Of a stretch of DNA of 64,000 nucleotides, positions 14,401 to 24,655 are shown one piece after another (positions within the stretch are counted from its first letter, which is position 1; each line of letters opens with the position of its first letter). Origin of the DNA: Thermotogota bacterium (GTDB lineage: Bacteria > Thermotogota > Thermotogae > Petrotogales > Petrotogaceae); the NCBI GenBank assembly GCA_022704305.1, contig JAKJGQ010000001.1, forward strand, positions 16,779-80,778, given 5' to 3'. The notes beneath the pieces were generated by a model. That model had not been told where the DNA came from. It saw nothing but the letters and a program-made list of their open reading frames with translations, and did not search any database. A program made the translations under genes and the position numbers.

Positions 14401-15132
14401 ATGAAAAGTTCTGATTATCCGGTTATCGTTCTTGGACACAGAGGGTATAGGAAGCTATATCCAGAAAACACGTTACTGGCTTTTAAGAAAGCAATGGAGT
14501 TTGGTGCGGATGGTGTTGAACTTGATGTCTGGAAGGCGAAAGACGGAAGTATAGTGGTGATACATGATCCTGATTGTGAAAGAGTATCGGGGCTCAGAGG
14601 CATTGTAAAGGAACTTTCATATAAAGAAATAAGAAAGCTTCGTCTTCCGATGAACCAGTATATTCCCACTCTGGATATGGTATATGCTGAACTGAAGGAA
14701 GATGCATATATTAATGTGGAGATAAAAGATGTTGAAGCTGTTGAAACTTCCCTTCAGATAGTAAGAAGCTTTAATGCCGTTGATAGAACTTTATTTTCAT
14801 CTTTTATTCCGGAAGCACTTTACAGATTAAGAGAGCTTCAGAGTGATGCTTATCTTGGACTTCTTGTAGATACCAAGGATCAGCTTTCGGATATATCAAA
14901 AGTAAATGAAAGAGTGGGTCTGTACTCTCTAAATGCACCTTTGGACGGTATAAAGTTTTTCGGAGTGGAAGCTTTTAAGAATCTTATTGCAAAAATGAAA
15001 GAAGAGGATATAAAGATCGCTTTATGGCATTTTGATGAACCCGAATGGGTTGAAAAGATAAAGGGATACTATGACTGCATAATAACTGACGATGTGCAGG
15101 CAATAGTAAATAAACTTGAAGAAATTTACTGA
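14401..15132 (+). CDS. ugpQ: glycerophosphodiester phosphodiesterase (GDPD family)
   Basis: GDPD catalytic motif HRG (LGHRGY), E..D metal ligands and a TIM-barrel-sized product. Confidence 0.75.
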   Translation: MKSSDYPVIVLGHRGYRKLYPENTLLAFKKAMEFGADGVELDVWKAKDGSIVVIHDPDCERVSGLRGIVKELSYKEIRKLRLPMNQYIPTLDMVYAELKEDAYINVEIKDVEAVETSLQIVRSFNAVDRTLFSSFIPEALYRLRELQSDAYLGLLVDTKDQLSDISKVNERVGLYSLNAPLDGIKFFGVEAFKNLIAKMKEEDIKIALWHFDEPEWVEKIKGYYDCIITDDVQAIVNKLEEIY

Positions 15133-16200: not shown

Positions 16201-16213
16201 AAGCTATCCCCTT

Positions 16214-16921
16214 TTATTCAAGGGGATAGTTTTTTTGTAGTCTTTCATACTCGTAATTTATGGAACTTAACACATAAAGTGCAGCAGTTTCAAATCTAAA
16301 AACAGTATTTCCCAAATTCACTACAGAAAAAAAGGTTTCATGGAAGAATTTCTTTTCATTTTGGGAAAAGCCTGTATCGGGGCCAAAAACTATATTCAAT
16401 GAATTCAACTTCTTTTTAAGTTCTTCTTTTAAAGAGCTTGTTCCTTGGAAATCAAAAACAAGTGTATTTTTTAAAGGAATATCCTTTATGTTTATAAAAG
16501 AAAACTTAGGAAAATTACATAAAAAAGATTGTTTTGAGCTTTCTGCAATCAACTTCAGAAATTTTTTTTGATCATCGTACTTAAAAGTAGACTTTTCACC
16601 GTTAAAAACGAATATTGAACTTACTCTGTGTTCCACAGCTTTTTCAATAAGCATTTGCATCCTATCCCATTTTGAAGCACCAATAAAAAGGTTTATTTCC
16701 GGAAGAAAGGAACAATGTATATTCTTTATCTTGAGTATTTTGAGATCGGCTGTTTTCTTGTTTATTTTTATTACGATACACTCAAAAAGCTTACCTTTCC
16801 CATCAGTTACATTGATTACTTCGTTTTCTCTTACCCGTACGGATCGGAGATGAGCACATTCTTCTTCGTTTAGGCAAGCATACTCTCCGCTGAATGAATC
16901 AAGCAAGAAAACATTAGGCAT
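16214..16921 (-). CDS. rsmE: 16S rRNA (uracil1498-N3)-methyltransferase RsmE
   Basis: RsmE-length protein (235 aa) with a PUA-like N-terminus and a SPOUT C-terminal knot region. Confidence 0.7.
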   Translation of the reverse strand: MPNVFLLDSFSGEYACLNEEECAHLRSVRVRENEVINVTDGKGKLFECIVIKINKKTADLKILKIKNIHCSFLPEINLFIGASKWDRMQMLIEKAVEHRVSSIFVFNGEKSTFKYDDQKKFLKLIAESSKQSFLCNFPKFSFINIKDIPLKNTLVFDFQGTSSLKEELKKKLNSLNIVFGPDTGFSQNEKKFFHETFFSVVNLGNTVFRFETAALYVLSSINYEYERLQKNYPLE

Positions 16922-18219: not shown

Positions 18220-18843
18220 TTATTTGTTTTCTTTTACTTCCAGTGTCAGGTTTATTCCTTCTGCTTTCATTTCATTTGTATCAGTTCTGAAAGTCGAGTT
18301 CTGTGTTTTAAGATCTATTTTTTTGGCATCGTTTTTTATCCGTACATCTCCGTTAAGTACAAGAATCTTGGTAGTTTCATTGTAAGAAAAGTTTTTTGCT
18401 GAAATCACATAATCTTCTTTTAATATTTTGACTAAATCATTTGAGGAACCAGTATAATTCTTTTCTTTATTATTAAATTCAAGAACATCACACGAGATGT
18501 AAAGATCTTTTTTATCAACTAAAATCTTTACGGATACTTTTTTCGAAAGCTGACCTTTTTCTGTGCTCAGATCAAATTTAAAAAATTCTGCTGATGCGTT
18601 TAAGGTTGATGTTTTTATGGTTGTTGCTGAGCATACCATATCTCGCCAATCATCGTCCAACTGGGTAATAGTTGCTACTTCAGTCATCATGGTAAGATCT
18701 GATTTTTTTATTACAACATTATCTTTTAAGACATGCTGCTTATCGCCCAAAGTTCCAAATCTAGAGCTGACCGAAATCTGGCTTTGAGAAAAAACAATAC
18801 TAAAAGATAATAATAAAATAAAAAATAGAATAATTTTCTTCAT
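18220..18843 (-). CDS. secreted LptC/OstA-N-like beta-jellyroll protein
   Basis: Signal peptide, then repeated beta-strand motifs typical of LptA/LptC/OstA_N domains (VLKDNVVIKKSD; VLNGDVRIKNDAKKIDLKT). Start overlaps the upstream gene by 4 nt. Confidence 0.5.
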   Translation of the reverse strand: MKKIILFFILLLSFSIVFSQSQISVSSRFGTLGDKQHVLKDNVVIKKSDLTMMTEVATITQLDDDWRDMVCSATTIKTSTLNASAEFFKFDLSTEKGQLSKKVSVKILVDKKDLYISCDVLEFNNKEKNYTGSSNDLVKILKEDYVISAKNFSYNETTKILVLNGDVRIKNDAKKIDLKTQNSTFRTDTNEMKAEGINLTLEVKENK

Positions 18844-19616
18844 AATTCAAGTTTTCCCTCCATATATTTTTGACATGTTTTCATTCCATCATAAAAGGCT
18901 ACACTATCCAATGGATCTTCCAATGGACTTTCACAAGTTATTAGTTCAATATCTTTGCTTATGATCCTGAACAATTCTCTTGTACGTGCGTAAGAAATTT
19001 TTAAAAGTATCTCGGCAGCATTCATTGCTCTGGATACAGAGCCACCCGCTTCATAAGAAATTATCAGTCCGTCTGGAGAGAGATTGTATGGTGAAAGACA
19101 GATATATGAAGAAGGAATTAAAAACATATCGGATAGTTCAGTATATCTATAATACGGTAGTATCGATAATTCAGATAAAAGAACCTGAGAAATCCTAGTT
19201 TTTCTATTAAGTAGGAAAAAATTTCCTGTTTTTATGTCAAAAACTTCAAAATCAACTCTATGCTTAAGCTTTTCTATAGTCAAAGTGCCAAAATGTGAGT
19301 CAAGATATTTAGAAAAAGTAGTCTGATTTTTAAGTTCAAGACCAGATGTACCAAGCTTCAAAAGAGTTATTGCCTGTTGATATCTGCTGGAGAAAAGATC
19401 TGAGTCGATAAGCGGTTTAATAGGATTATCTTTTTCCTCAATAAATTCTTTTAAATACTTATAAAAATTTTTTCCATGCATGCCATAAAAAAATCCTATA
19501 AGACTGGAAGCACCACTTACAGTTAACTCTATATTATTATCGTGCATAAGGATATTACTAAGAGCTCCGCTATCCCATACTATACCCTCAAAAAGGCCTC
19601 CCATGAAAATTTTCAT
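18840..19616 (-). CDS. hypothetical protein, possibly a degenerate patatin-like paralog
   Basis: Glycine-rich N-terminus (FMGGLFEG), VSGASSL where patatins have G-x-S-x-G, and a D-G-L near the C-terminus where patatins have D-G-A/G. It overlaps both neighbouring genes by 4 nt. The assignment is weak. Confidence 0.4.
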   Translation of the reverse strand: MKIFMGGLFEGIVWDSGALSNILMHDNNIELTVSGASSLIGFFYGMHGKNFYKYLKEFIEEKDNPIKPLIDSDLFSSRYQQAITLLKLGTSGLELKNQTTFSKYLDSHFGTLTIEKLKHRVDFEVFDIKTGNFFLLNRKTRISQVLLSELSILPYYRYTELSDMFLIPSSYICLSPYNLSPDGLIISYEAGGSVSRAMNAAEILLKISYARTRELFRIISKDIELITCESPLEDPLDSVAFYDGMKTCQKYMEGKLEL

Positions 19617-20410
19617 GTTATATCACGGCTGTATACTCTTTTAGCCTTCCTGTATATTTCAAAATACTTATCAAAATCATACCATTCAACTTTATCATAA
19701 AAAGAATAAACTTCATTAGCTGTATCAAGTTCGTTTTTAGTAATTAAAGCTGTTTTAAGAGAATCTATATAATTCATATAATCCATTCCATCAGAGAATG
19801 TATCTTTAAGTATAACCGGATTTATGTCATTAGCAATTATGTACTCTCCACCCAATTTTTTAGCCAAAAAAACAGGTACTTCAGAAATTGCTCCTCCGTC
19901 TACTAGATCCATGCCTCCCAGTCTCATTGGGGGAAAAGCTCCCGGAACATTTGAAGATGCCATTATGGCATCAATAAGATACCCCTCTGTTATTTCAACT
20001 AAGCGTTCAGAATTTATATCAAAGGCTACTACTCCAAACTTGATCTTACAATCTGAAAACCTTTTTTTACCGTATATCTGTTTTAAAATATCATATACTA
20101 GATCATTCTGGGCTATTCCTCTTGAATAAAGAAGCCTTTTAAAGGAGTTTACTTTTGATGATAGAGCGTTGCTTAAATCAATAAACTTCAGGGAATTTTT
20201 TTTAATTATAGCCTCAAAATCTTTCAGGAACTCATTTTTTGAAGGATTTAAAGCATAAACGCCTCCGACAACTGATCCGGCACTACAGCCTGTGACAATG
20301 TCGAATTTTATGTTCCTTTTTCTCACAATCTCACTGATGAGGGCAATATGTGCAATTCCTTTTACTCCTCCGCTTCCAAGTGCAAGAGCGTTTATCATTA
20401 CTTCCTCCAT
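19613..20410 (-). CDS. patatin-like phospholipase (lipid acyl hydrolase)
   Basis: All three patatin motifs are present: glycine-rich oxyanion loop LGSGGVKG, nucleophile elbow GCSAG (G-x-S-x-G), and the catalytic Asp in MDLVDGG. Confidence 0.85.
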   Translation of the reverse strand: MEEVMINALALGSGGVKGIAHIALISEIVRKRNIKFDIVTGCSAGSVVGGVYALNPSKNEFLKDFEAIIKKNSLKFIDLSNALSSKVNSFKRLLYSRGIAQNDLVYDILKQIYGKKRFSDCKIKFGVVAFDINSERLVEITEGYLIDAIMASSNVPGAFPPMRLGGMDLVDGGAISEVPVFLAKKLGGEYIIANDINPVILKDTFSDGMDYMNYIDSLKTALITKNELDTANEVYSFYDKVEWYDFDKYFEIYRKAKRVYSRDIT

Positions 20411-20413
20411 TTT

Positions 20414-22534
20414 TTACAGAGAAGGACTCAGTAAAAAGTAGGTTATCAGAGCTCCTACCGCTACTCCAAGTACTCCCGAAATGGTTGAGGACCAAAAAAT
20501 ATCTTGATTAGGCTTTTGTAGTTCTGATATCTGCTTTTCCATCTCTGTGACTTTTAATGAAAGCTCGGAAGATGCCGTAACTTTCTGAACTGATAATTCA
20601 ATATCTGCTACTTCTTTTTTTGATGCTTTTTCTGCATTTATTTCGTTGTATTTTGAACTAAGTGAAAAAACTGTTTTTTTGATATCAGACATATCGGATT
20701 GCAATTTAATTAGTTCTGATGCAAGGTCAGAAGAGAGCTCACGTTTGATTTCTGTTTTCATACTGCTTAAATCAACTGTTTCGGCAATCTTAGTAGTCTC
20801 AGGAGATACAGTTTGATTTTTAAGCAGTATATAAGATTTTACTAAAAAATCATAATCTTCTTTTAATTTCTGTATTTCATTTTTATTAATTTCTGAAACA
20901 AGGGAGTTGCTCTGTTTCAAAAGATCAGAATTATAAATGAGTTCCAATTTATTTTGATTTTCATAAACAAGAGAAGAAAGATCCTCTAACTTTTTTTCAC
21001 TTTCTCCGACTCTTTTAGCTATAGAGGCAACATTTCCAATAGTATTCAAAGTATCTTTATCAAGTTTTATAAGTGATGAAAGCGAGTTTATCTGAGATTC
21101 AACAGAGTCTGTTCTCAACAAAAGCTTCTGTATACTTTCATTTTGTGCACTCTGGGTTTTTTCTGAAATTTTGAACTTTTCGTCATACTCATTGGCTTTA
21201 ATAGTATATATATATAGCTGAGAGAGCTTATCAGAGTACATGTTAATATATTCCTGCATAAGTCTTACTTCCTGCTGCAAGTTGACAAAATCATTTTTAA
21301 GGACATAATCAGTTATACTTGAAGGTATAGATTGGTTTGAAGTTGCTTTTATATTTTCAAGCATCTGACGGAGTTCTCCAACAAAAGAATTAACATCTGA
21401 ATTTTTGCTTTCTAACTCAGAAAGTTTTCTTGTAAAATACTCGTTTCTATTATCATATGTGTCTATAAATGCATTTATGTACTCAACTCTGTTATTAAGG
21501 TTATCATAAAGAGTTTTGGTATCCTTAATGTCGTTAGCAAGAGATTGAGTGTCTTTTTTAATTATAAGCAGTTCCTTATCATTTTGTACAGTACTTTGAA
21601 ACGCCGGAACTGTTTCTTTTGATTCCAGATAGACAAGTCGTGAGATAATATCGTTAAAACGTTTTTCATATTGATTCTGTCCGGAGTACTCAAGAGCAGC
21701 TATACGATCTCTCAAAGTGCTCAAAGTTGCTTCTGCCGTCTGATTGTAAAATCCTATGTGACTGTTGACAATATTTCTTAAAGCTACTTTCATTCCTTCC
21801 ATCTCACTGTCAAGCCTTTGTTTGGCATAATCGTTAAGTTGCTGACGATTTTTTTCTTCATATTGAGCAAAAAGAAAACTTATAGAATCAGTTGTTTTGT
21901 CAAGCTTTTCTTCTATTCTTAATAGTTCTGATTGAAAGAGATCGACCTTTTTATTTGACTGTTCTGAAAAAGACATAAGAGTTTTAAGGTAGGAATCGGC
22001 TGTTTTTTTCGCTGTGTCATTTGCAATAGCCGCGGCATTGTCCAAAATTACTTTAAATATTGCACTATCCGTATCAAGCGGCCCATCTATGTTCATAAAT
22101 TTTTCAAGTGCCTCTACTCTGGATTTCTGCTGAGCTATATCACTGTTCAATCCCGAAATCTTTGAATCAATTTTTTTCTCCATAGATATTATTTTACTGT
22201 CATAGTTGTAAAGAGTTGTCTCTATATTGTTTATACGGTTTTCGAGACTTTCAGTATCAATCTGGGATATTCTTTTTTCAAAATCATCGAAGCTGCTAGA
22301 GTACTTTTTATCAAGGTAATCTATAAGATTTGCTCCGAAAAAGGCAATATCAAATCTCATGACGTTTGATGAGCCATTGAATCTTCCCTGACTGTCCAGT
22401 TCAAGAAGACCATCAGTTACCATACGTACAACTTGTGAATAGTATGGAGAAGAAGGTTTAAGGTCACGTATTTCTAACGAAAATACCGGAATAGAGACAA
22501 AAATAAAAATAAATACAAGGAAAAATTTTCTCAT
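20414..22534 (-). CDS. Ompα-like envelope anchor: N-terminal SLH-like domain, about 550 aa coiled-coil rod, C-terminal transmembrane helix
   Basis: Signal peptide, then an SLH-like segment (DLKPSSPYYSQVVRMVTDGLLELDSQGRFNGSSNVMRFDIAFF). A long heptad-rich Q/E/K/L region follows, and the protein ends in a hydrophobic anchor ISGVLGVAVGALITYFLL. Confidence 0.65.
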   Translation of the reverse strand: MRKFFLVFIFIFVSIPVFSLEIRDLKPSSPYYSQVVRMVTDGLLELDSQGRFNGSSNVMRFDIAFFGANLIDYLDKKYSSSFDDFEKRISQIDTESLENRINNIETTLYNYDSKIISMEKKIDSKISGLNSDIAQQKSRVEALEKFMNIDGPLDTDSAIFKVILDNAAAIANDTAKKTADSYLKTLMSFSEQSNKKVDLFQSELLRIEEKLDKTTDSISFLFAQYEEKNRQQLNDYAKQRLDSEMEGMKVALRNIVNSHIGFYNQTAEATLSTLRDRIAALEYSGQNQYEKRFNDIISRLVYLESKETVPAFQSTVQNDKELLIIKKDTQSLANDIKDTKTLYDNLNNRVEYINAFIDTYDNRNEYFTRKLSELESKNSDVNSFVGELRQMLENIKATSNQSIPSSITDYVLKNDFVNLQQEVRLMQEYINMYSDKLSQLYIYTIKANEYDEKFKISEKTQSAQNESIQKLLLRTDSVESQINSLSSLIKLDKDTLNTIGNVASIAKRVGESEKKLEDLSSLVYENQNKLELIYNSDLLKQSNSLVSEINKNEIQKLKEDYDFLVKSYILLKNQTVSPETTKIAETVDLSSMKTEIKRELSSDLASELIKLQSDMSDIKKTVFSLSSKYNEINAEKASKKEVADIELSVQKVTASSELSLKVTEMEKQISELQKPNQDIFWSSTISGVLGVAVGALITYFLLSPSL

Positions 22535-22548
22535 CTTTATACCTCCGT

Positions 22549-24264
22549 TTACTTTAAAACAGCAAGATCGTCAATGAAAAGGGACTGAGCAGCGTCAATA
22601 TATATTACAAACTTTATACCTTTGGTTTCTATTACATGAGGTCCTTTTGAAACGTATACTATAAACTGTGACGGTGGATAAATTACTCCGTCAATTTTAT
22701 ACTCTCCTGAAGAATAAGGCCTTATGGGAATTTTATCTTCAAATATAAAGTTAAGATTTTTAACTTCCTGGTCAGCTATATCTATTTTTTCAGTTTTTTC
22801 GATATTCTGATATTTTACTGTCACAGTATGCCGTCCTGTAGACAAAGGATAGCCAAAAACGCCAAAGTATCCAATAAGTTGGTTGTCAATATATATAAGA
22901 GTACCGTCGACATTGTTTATTATATTTACAAAACCATATCCAGGTGAATCGATTATAAGAACGTTAGTTTTTCCAGACTCTGCAGAAATATTGTATTTTT
23001 TTGTAAGACTTTCAAACTGAAAAGTCTGTGTTTTAGAGATAATATTTGCAATAAATTGTGCAGGTACGGTACTTATCTCATTTTGATAAGAGATACTCTT
23101 TTTTTCTGAAGAGTAAAGATTCATAACCGTTATTTTGTTTATATCAATGATCTTCGGAGCTTTCTGGTCAAGCTTTATACCAAGCAGATCCGAAGTATTT
23201 TTGCTGTATATCTGAAGAAAATGTTCCTTTTTATCGGCAACTATAAAAGAAATGCCTGAACCAAGGTTTATTCCGTCAAGAAACACTTCAGCATTTTCTG
23301 CGTTAAGAAGTTTGAAAGTCCTTATATCTTCTTCCAAACTTACAGTATAACTTATCTGAGGAGTGGCCTCACTTATATTTGCAGAAAGCTTCTTAGGAGT
23401 ATAAAGAGCTTTTGATACCGTAAATAGATGATTTCCCATAGGAATCTGTGCGGTAAACGGAGTTATTCCAAGATACTCATTATTCAATGTAACTAAAGCT
23501 CCTGAAGGCTCTGAAGAAAAAAGCACAGCGCAAGCTTTGGTCATTGTAAATATATAATCGTTTGTTTTAGAGTCAGTTTTAAAACTGAAATCCATATATC
23601 CAGGTGCTTTTAGTATAATATCCTTTCCCTCCAGCAAAGTTAAAGCCGTCGCATAAGGAGTAGTGCCCAGATTTTTTGAGCCTACAAAAATGCTTGCATC
23701 AGAAGGTATGGAAGATATATATGCAAAGTCAGTTCTTTTAAGTGTAACAGACAGCTTGTTTTCATAAAAAGGTTTTAAGTCAATTGTAACTGTTTGGGAA
23801 AGATACCCTGCTTGCTCTATCTTCAATTCTCTTATTGTAGAGGGCAGGTAAGTTTGGGTATCGTTAATAACTTTCTGGCGTATATTATTATTGTTGAACA
23901 TATAATTTATATAGAAACTGTCACTATTCGTTTTAATGTTGAGAATACTTAGCGGGACCTGTAAAGCTGAAATCTCTAACTTTGAACCTTTGGTACCGGA
24001 AATATCCAATGAATAATCTGAATATCCAGGTTTTTTAACTTCCAGCTTATGGGTTGTATCTGACAGATCTATGTTGTATACGGACTTTTCAATGATTTTT
24101 TTAAAAATTCCGTCTATAAATACTGAACTTCCTTCTAAACCAGAAAGAGTAAGCGTAAATGAAAAAGATAATATGTATGCCAAAAGAATAAAAACCGTTA
24201 AAAAGAGTCTTTTACCGATATTCCCCACTCTTAACCACCTCTTTGATTGTTTTTTGTAGCTCAC
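22549..24264 (-). CDS. secreted/membrane-anchored protein with about six PEGA domains
   Basis: N-terminal TM or signal segment plus repeated PEGA-like units, for example SIFVGSKNLGTTPY...APGY, VTLNNEYLGITPF and VFLDGINLGSG. Confidence 0.65.
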   Translation of the reverse strand: MSYKKQSKRWLRVGNIGKRLFLTVFILLAYILSFSFTLTLSGLEGSSVFIDGIFKKIIEKSVYNIDLSDTTHKLEVKKPGYSDYSLDISGTKGSKLEISALQVPLSILNIKTNSDSFYINYMFNNNNIRQKVINDTQTYLPSTIRELKIEQAGYLSQTVTIDLKPFYENKLSVTLKRTDFAYISSIPSDASIFVGSKNLGTTPYATALTLLEGKDIILKAPGYMDFSFKTDSKTNDYIFTMTKACAVLFSSEPSGALVTLNNEYLGITPFTAQIPMGNHLFTVSKALYTPKKLSANISEATPQISYTVSLEEDIRTFKLLNAENAEVFLDGINLGSGISFIVADKKEHFLQIYSKNTSDLLGIKLDQKAPKIIDINKITVMNLYSSEKKSISYQNEISTVPAQFIANIISKTQTFQFESLTKKYNISAESGKTNVLIIDSPGYGFVNIINNVDGTLIYIDNQLIGYFGVFGYPLSTGRHTVTVKYQNIEKTEKIDIADQEVKNLNFIFEDKIPIRPYSSGEYKIDGVIYPPSQFIVYVSKGPHVIETKGIKFVIYIDAAQSLFIDDLAVLK

Positions 24265-24655
24265 TTAATTTTTCTATAAGTTCTTTTTCATTTCCCAACC
24301 TATCGATAACTGATTGCATAACTTCTACTCTTTTTTTGATTACTTTGGTAATAAGTTCTCTTCCAGAATCGGTAAGTTTGATCCTATATACTCTTTTGTC
24401 TTCCTCTGACTGCTCCCTGTCCAAAAAATAAAGTATTTCCAGTCTTTTTATTAGACCAGTTGTAGTGCTTTTGGTTACTCCGAGATTTTTACTTATTTCG
24501 CTTAACTTTTTCTCTCCGTCGAAGTATAATAGTTGTAATACATCAAATTGAGCAGGAGAAATGTCGTAATCTTTCAGAACTTTCCTTCCAGCTGCCCTGA
24601 TGTGGAAACAGATCGACCTTAAAATGCTTTCCATATTTTCTGCGTTCTTGTACAT
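24212..24655 (-). CDS. MarR-family transcriptional regulator
   Basis: Winged-HTH MarR signature (LSEISKNLGVTKSTTTGLIKRLE), 147 aa; first gene of the minus-strand block. Confidence 0.85.
   Translation of the reverse strand: MYKNAENMESILRSICFHIRAAGRKVLKDYDISPAQFDVLQLLYFDGEKKLSEISKNLGVTKSTTTGLIKRLEILYFLDREQSEEDKRVYRIKLTDSGRELITKVIKKRVEVMQSVIDRLGNEKELIEKLSELQKTIKEVVKSGEYR

Follow-up and report, generated by a model that had tools for sequence, protein, structure and literature searches.

A patatin-like phospholipase encoded in tandem with a catalytically degenerate patatin-fold paralog in an envelope-gene cluster of the Petrotogaceae

Some bacterial patatin-like phospholipases are known as toxins or defence effectors; others, RssA and PlpD among them, are housekeeping enzymes that are poorly understood and whose control is, to our knowledge, largely unknown. 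We analyzed a 64,000-nt stretch of the genome of a Thermotogota bacterium of the family Petrotogaceae (GenBank assembly GCA_022704305.1, contig JAKJGQ010000001.1, positions 16,779 to 80,778 of the forward strand), called here the window, in whose coordinates all positions are given. On its minus strand, a 265-aa open reading frame (ORF) for a patatin (20410..19613, assigned by Pfam PF01734) is followed by the gene of a 258-aa protein (19616..18840), named here the partner, which family profiles and a predicted fold identify as a paralog of the patatin and which has lost the Ser-Asp catalytic dyad.

The best described relatives of the patatin are the proteins of the PlpD and RssA (YchK) type (COG1752, PF01734), whose Ser-Asp dyad it has together with each of their four conserved blocks. 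PlpD, whose homodimer has an effect on the lipid composition of membranes (PMC11116518), is the best match of the patatin by sequence and by structure as well as the best structural match of the partner model. Unlike PlpD, the pair of the window carries neither an Omp85 barrel nor a POTRA domain nor a signal peptide, and one of its two members, the partner, is wholly devoid of the dyad.

Contacts between patatin folds are known to matter for activity. The patatin domains of PNPLA9 (iPLA2-beta) and of CapV and CapE are activated through dimer or filament contacts (PMC12871566; PDB 6aun, 9jeh, 8zr9, 9ion); PNPLA9 needs to dimerize through its catalytic domain to be active, and patatins carry their catalytic Asp on a flexible segment that protein-protein contacts stabilize (PMC12871566). 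This dependence on oligomers provides a structural rationale for an assembly of two patatin folds, although the described assemblies are homo-oligomers of active subunits, and the locus has no counterpart of the neighbouring CD-NTase whose cyclic nucleotides switch on CapV and CapE. A regulatory pseudoenzyme is also on record: ABHD5 (CGI-58), a hydrolase-fold protein without a nucleophile, co-activates the patatin-domain lipase PNPLA2 (ATGL) by protein contact (PMC12871566). The analogy is functional only, as ABHD5 has an alpha/beta-hydrolase fold, is not a paralog of the patatins, is eukaryotic and is not operon-encoded. In the ExoU-SpcU system, the gene of a patatin-fold phospholipase adjoins that of a small protein whose binding keeps the enzyme inactive; SpcU, however, is a type III secretion chaperone of unrelated fold and ExoU a secreted multidomain toxin, while no secretion system is present at the window locus.

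Full-text literature searches returned no description of a bacterial patatin, including those of the PlpD/RssA type, that is paired with a conserved dead patatin paralog. Patatins, pseudoenzymes and oligomer-dependent activation of patatins are already known, and what the sequences add is a small, lineage-restricted family of pseudo-patatins coupled to an active patatin.

The patatin and its patatin-fold partner

The 265-aa protein had been credited in a first-pass annotation of the window, made from the DNA letters without database searches, with three patatin motifs, and all three are readily located. The GSGGVKG segment (aa 12-18, nt 20357-20377) contains the G-G-x-[RK]-G pattern of the oxyanion/phosphate loop, the nucleophile elbow GCSAG (aa 41-45, nt 20276-20290) carries the nucleophile Ser43, and the DGG motif (aa 171-173, nt 19892-19900) provides the catalytic Asp171. 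An alignment of 18 homologues shows no variation at residues L11, G12, S13, G14, G15, G41, S43, G45, D171, and G172. The Pfam profile PF01734 is matched with 111 bits against a cutoff of 27.7 (E 1.1e-31), with positions 1-190 of its 191 covered, and the NCBIfam model of RssA with 103 bits against a cutoff of 272, as befits an RssA-like protein that is not an RssA equivalog. When compared with the sequences of the PDB, the protein finds its best solved relative in PlpD (E 8e-19). PlpD is likewise matched by Foldseek (E 3.3e-18, TM-score 0.73) with the AlphaFold2 (AF2) model, which has a predicted local distance difference test (pLDDT) score of 87.3 and in which Ser43 is placed between the strand 38-41 and the helix 44-54, while Asp171 ends the strand 167-171. 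Motifs, alignment and model show the 265-aa protein to be a complete, canonical Ser-Asp patatin-like protein, predicted to act as a phospholipase or lysophospholipase of the RssA/PlpD-like (COG1752) type.

The 265-aa ORF is probably four codons too long at its N terminus. The second ATG (nt 20398, Met5) is preceded, at a distance of 5 nt, by a GGAGG sequence, and the nearest relative, for which gene callers give a protein of 261 aa, has a Leu codon at ORF position 1. For these two reasons a start at Met5, yielding a 261-aa protein that begins MINALALGSGG, is favoured over the ORF start (MEEVM...), which is probably wrong. Residue numbers are nevertheless those of the 265-aa ORF.

Taken alone, the partner sequence hardly betrays its origin. 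It scores 13.5 bits on the Pfam Patatin profile (E 0.083), below the cutoff of 27.7, and phmmer found no match to it among the PDB sequences at E<=10; even the partner-family profile returned only weak patatin matches from the same set (E 0.2-3). A BLASTP alignment of the partner with the adjacent patatin is not significant (20% identity, E 1.3) and is collinear over 231 residues. At the level of families, the likeness of the two sequences is far beyond chance. The comparison of the partner alignment with the patatin alignment by hhalign gave a probability of 98.1% and an E value of 9.3e-14 over 231 columns, and a hidden Markov model of the patatin family matches all 11 partners (E 8e-17 to 1.6e-4). 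The Pfam Patatin profile is itself matched by 10 of the 11 partner orthologues (best E 3.8e-11), and the orthologue at locus L012 reaches 37.1 bits, above the cutoff.

The AF2 model of the partner, built on eight family sequences, is predicted with a pLDDT of 85.7 and a predicted template modelling (pTM) score of 0.86. The top 28 matches of this model in a Foldseek search of the PDB all have the patatin fold: PlpD is the best (E 1.5e-9, TM-score 0.65), followed by CapV, CapE, patatin, VipD, and ExoU. The order of helices and strands is identical in the AF2 models of partner and patatin. The non-patatin fold that would have told against the first-pass annotation is therefore not what the model predicts, and family profiles and model together show the partner to be an ancient paralog of the patatin fold.

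Catalytic positions of the partner

Within this shared framework, the residues of the partner at the patatin active site differ in each of the three motifs. The segment V33-S34-G35-A36-S37-S38 (nt 19503-19520), which includes the SGASS singled out in the first-pass annotation, corresponds to the patatin elbow G41-C-S43-A-G45-S46. The register of the elbow rests on profile alignments and on secondary-structure strings from DSSP: the counterpart of Ser43 is Gly35 according to hhalign and hmmsearch, or Ala36 according to BLASTP and to the register given by the start of the helix, and neither residue is a nucleophile. In 20 partner orthologues, position 35 is Gly (17/20) or Ser (3/20), and Ile or Ala prevail at position 36. 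The two small elbow residues, Gly at positions -2 and +2 relative to the nucleophile, are replaced in the partner family by Val, Thr or Leu and by Ser or Gly, respectively. Each of the 20 orthologues has Ser or Thr at position 34; this residue is the usual 'x' residue of the patatin G-[TS]-S-x-G motif.

Asp171 of the patatin, the second member of the dyad, in the context L-V-D-G-G, aligns to Pro168 of the partner, in the context L-I-P-S-S, at the end of the equivalent strand (P-S-S, nt 19107-19115). This position is Pro in 19 of the 20 orthologues and Ala in the remaining one, and is never acidic; the Asp of the CapV DGG motif is aligned to the same Pro168 by the partner profile. The D-G-L of the partner (aa 181-183), which the first-pass annotation had pointed out, is not the counterpart of DGG, as it lies 13 residues downstream of Pro168 in a variable loop.

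The glycine-rich N terminus noticed at the outset, MGGLFEG (aa 5-11), is the counterpart of the oxyanion loop. M5-G-G-L-F-E-G11 pairs with GSGGVKG in a register that equates G11 with G18 and W14 with H21. The second oxyanion Gly is replaced by Leu and the basic Lys17 by Glu10, while the glycines G6-G7-x-x-x-G11 remain in the partner; position 7 is Asp in 11/20 orthologues. Five residues, W14, E124, P154, P176, and N199, are invariant across the 20 orthologues, Glu124 being located in a central beta-strand.

Alignments and models thus support a partner that lacks the Ser-Asp dyad, with Gly35 or Ala36 and Pro168 at the two dyad positions, and that is catalytically degenerate. The retained dyad that the first-pass annotation had allowed for was not found, and its proposal of an active lipase beside a catalytically degenerate paralog is borne out as far as predicted fold and dyad alignment can tell.

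Conservation, pairing and gene context

The partner is 99% identical to a protein from a metagenome-assembled genome (MAG) named 'uncultured Petrotoga sp.' and 91% identical to a protein of a 'Petrotogaceae bacterium'. Relative to the latter, the partner has a ratio of nonsynonymous to synonymous substitution rates (dN/dS) of 0.10, compared with 0.14 for the patatin, and each of the two flanking genes has a value of about 0.10. These values show that the partner gene is under strong purifying selection and is not decaying. An exhaustive phmmer search among 1.84 billion proteins returned nine representatives of the partner family, to which a profile search added members from Marinitoga; all named members belong to the Petrotogaceae. 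A word-indexed search with the single partner sequence recovered the 91% relative only, and a scan of contigs with one narrow peptide pattern from the partner alignment gave two loci. The orthologues are intact proteins of about 257-264 aa in Petrotoga, Marinitoga, Tepiditoga and related MAGs (five or more lineages), at 28-42% identity and with 11 invariant columns. In public annotation most of them are called 'hypothetical protein', and one is called a patatin-like phospholipase domain protein despite the missing catalytic residues.

In every locus examined, the partner gene lies directly downstream of an intact patatin gene. In the window, the two genes share an ATGA stop/start overlap of 4 nt (19613..19616, minus strand), and the partner ATG is not preceded by a Shine-Dalgarno sequence, an arrangement suggestive of translational coupling. 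The overlap is 4 nt in 5/7 loci (the window, L001, L007, L010, and L012), 14 nt in L008 and is replaced by a 2-nt gap in L009. A second ATGA overlap (nt 18840-18843) joins the partner to the following gene, an LptC-like one, and is kept in all Petrotogaceae loci. Of the 4-nt overlaps that had been claimed on both sides of the two genes, these two stand; that of the patatin with its upstream neighbour does not, since the latter ends at 20414 and does not overlap the patatin ORF.

Three more distant patatin homologues, from outside Thermotogota and in different neighbourhoods, are solo genes with no partner. At locus L010, from a more divergent Thermotogae bacterium MAG (GCA_021161835.1), the gene of a 277-aa patatin overlaps by 4 nt that of a 222-aa degenerate patatin (L010:6831-7499), whose elbow reads GAGFGS, whose Asp is one residue off the DGG position, and which is matched to the patatin profile with a probability of 89% (E 2.3e-6). 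Sequence comparison thus suggests that the pairing predates the Petrotogaceae or arose twice.

In the Petrotogaceae loci, the pair is embedded in a conserved marR-PEGA-coiled-coil-patatin-partner-LptC-like cluster, flanked by the housekeeping genes argS, serS, and rsmE. In the window, all its genes are on the minus strand. The cluster starts with a marR regulator gene (24655..24212; Pfam MarR, E 1.3e-13), which heads it in all Petrotogaceae loci. Next comes the gene of a protein with three PEGA repeats and an N-terminal membrane anchor (24264..22549; Pfam PEGA, E 5e-25), conserved in the operon, with an ORF of 571 aa as against 559 aa in the gene calls of relatives. Immediately before the patatin, a gene known from its ORF and translation (22534..20414) encodes a 706-aa predicted coiled-coil envelope protein with a signal-like N-terminal segment, a hydrophobic C-terminal segment and only faint coiled-coil matches in Pfam; it keeps its position in loci L001-L009 and L012. 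All Petrotogaceae loci have the coiled-coil and triple-PEGA genes ahead of the patatin pair. Downstream of the partner, the gene 18843..18220 encodes a 207-aa LptA/LptC-like protein (OstA beta-jellyroll) with an N-terminal hydrophobic anchor or signal; it matches Pfam LptD_N with 34.8 bits against a cutoff of 20.4, the matches to OstA_2 and LptC being weaker and those to the TIGR LptA/LptC models weak. The presence of such a protein is of interest in its own right, since the Thermotogota are a phylum reported to be without lipopolysaccharide (LPS), and it may be a component of the Lpt-like pathway that has been proposed to bring phospholipids to the toga.

The serS gene and then rsmE follow the LptC-like gene and complete the minus-strand gene row (16.2-24.7 kb). 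When the minus strand was scanned from marR to rsmE, no terminator-like site was detected between them, and the first convincing one downstream of the cluster is a strong intrinsic-terminator-like hairpin after rsmE (16229..16204, minus strand), with a 10-bp stem including five GC pairs and a T tract. It follows that serS and rsmE may share a transcript with the envelope/patatin cluster, and the sequence suggests one long transcription unit from marR to serS-rsmE. The same hairpin (16204-16229) looks bidirectional and is located between rsmE and a convergent Ala_racemase_N-like gene on the plus strand.

A gene for a glycerophosphodiester phosphodiesterase (GDPD; 14401-15132) lies on the plus strand, about 1 kb past rsmE (16214), with which the operon ends on the minus strand. 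The substrate of GDPD is the product of complete phospholipid deacylation. This neighbourhood is common to the closest relatives only (L001-L006), and its link to the patatin pair may be coincidental.

The neighbours of the pair, namely marR, PEGA, coiled-coil, LptC-like and serS, include neither a CD-NTase cyclase nor defence genes. PADLOC returned weak, generic phospholipase matches for the patatin and none for the partner. Membership in the anti-phage effectors CapV and CapE of the cyclic-oligonucleotide-based anti-phage signalling system (CBASS) was considered and rejected, given a CBASS_lipase score of 32 bits against the 200 required and the lack of an adjacent CD-NTase.

Possible roles of the pair

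We propose that patatin and partner form a heteromeric lipase with a pseudo-enzyme subunit, a reading to which we give an even chance and in which the association of the two proteins is argued from sequence and analogy. Coupled translation would make the two proteins together, and they would associate as a heteromer in which the dead subunit substitutes for one of the identical chains in the homodimers or oligomers needed or used by patatins like PlpD, PNPLA9, and CapV. From there, it could position or stabilize the flexible Asp-bearing segment of the active subunit, or its membrane-docking surface, so that lipid hydrolysis would be regulated. A heterodimer is the most economical form of this proposal because PlpD is a homodimer, PNPLA9 depends on its dimer and ABHD5 sets a precedent for PNPLA2.

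As neither protein has a signal peptide, the pair is expected at the cytoplasmic face of the inner membrane. A role in the remodelling or homeostasis of envelope (toga) lipids, rather than in defence or toxicity, is plausible, because the operon encodes the LptC/LptA-like bridge together with the PEGA and membrane-anchored coiled-coil proteins. In Thermotoga, ordinary phospholipids form patches in the toga, and an Lpt-like machinery has been proposed as their carrier (PMC10160955). A far-reaching extension would have an obligate heterodimeric phospholipase that, together with the LptC/LptA-like, PEGA and coiled-coil proteins, remodels and supplies phospholipid for these patches; in this full form we consider it unlikely. 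If true, it would define a lineage-specific envelope-lipid homeostasis module in an LPS-less diderm.

Several observations weigh against a dead subunit in a lipase of the envelope. The elbow register is off by one residue between methods (Gly35 vs Ala36), 3/20 orthologues retain Ser at the nucleophile position (in T-S-A-G or S-S-I-G), and Glu124 and Asn199 are invariant, leaving room for a residual or different chemistry in the partner. The pair of L010 has no envelope neighbours, and the link of the pair to the LptC-like and envelope genes is one of synteny only. In addition, no patatin-partner fusion was present among the matches of the homologue searches, so that the association receives no Rosetta-stone support.

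Other roles can be drawn from the same data. The partner could be a non-catalytic lipid-binding protein that serves the LptC/LptA-like neighbour rather than a lipase subunit, taking up a phospholipid or lysolipid in what was once the active-site cleft before passing it on to the periplasmic bridge. The ATGA overlap between the partner and LptC-like genes, present in every Petrotogaceae locus and stricter than the patatin/partner overlap, would fit such a hand-off, as would the retention of the fold and of the glycine loop and the Lpt-like phospholipid transport to the toga proposed for Thermotogae (PMC10160955). The L010 pair, however, exists without a recognizable LptC-like gene, and the LptC-like domain lies outside the cytoplasm, while the partner carries no signal peptide; we regard the hand-off as rather unlikely. 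An inhibitor of immunity or anti-lipase type, silencing the phospholipase in the cytoplasm of the producer until its release or a stress signal, in the manner of ExoU kept silent by SpcU or of lipase effector/immunity pairs, appears quite unlikely. It could draw on the tight translational coupling, which would yield a stoichiometry like that of a toxin and its antidote, and on the weak similarity of the patatin to defence phospholipase effectors (45 bits in PADLOC; 32 bits for CBASS_lipase), but the latter scores are far under the cutoffs (32 vs 200 for CBASS_lipase), and the locus, set between argS and serS, is part of a vertically conserved core, genes of mobile elements, secretion systems or defence being absent from its surroundings. 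Nor is any immunity or chaperone protein, SpcU included, known to be a paralog of its lipase (cf. PDB 4akx/3tu3). The immunity or chaperone partner that had been suggested beside a regulated heteromeric lipase is thus disfavoured: an operon of housekeeping character that is conserved vertically makes a subunit or regulator more likely than an immunity protein.

More doubtful again is an enzyme with a re-wired active site, an acyltransferase or esterase in which the invariant Glu124 would work with Ser/Thr34, with Ser37/38 or, in some orthologues, with Ser35. The strict conservation of Ser or Thr at position 34 in 20/20 orthologues, the invariance of Glu124, Asn199, and Trp14 and the three orthologues that retain Ser at the canonical nucleophile position speak for it. 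Ser/Thr34, however, is an ordinary 'x' residue of patatins, Ser38 is replaced by Val, Ala or Thr in 8/20 orthologues, the canonical Asp position is never acidic, and the partner has lost the second oxyanion Gly, the Lys/Arg and the small residues that form the elbow. A decaying tandem duplicate without function would account for the loss of the catalytic motifs and for the score of the window protein under the Pfam threshold, but it is contradicted by the dN/dS of 0.10, by an intact frame of about 257 aa kept across genera at 28-42% identity, by the 11 invariant columns and by the confident predicted fold. Pseudogene status was rejected on the strength of this dN/dS and conservation and is effectively refuted.

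Should the partner indeed act as a subunit or regulator of the patatin, the pair would be a simple bacterial case of the control of a patatin lipase by a pseudoenzyme, parallel to ABHD5-ATGL or to the dimer-dependent PNPLA9. The annotation of the partner family is corrected by its assignment to the patatin fold, and, through the Lpt-like protein encoded in its operon, the pair gives an entry point to the question of how the Thermotogota manage lipids for their unusual outer envelope.

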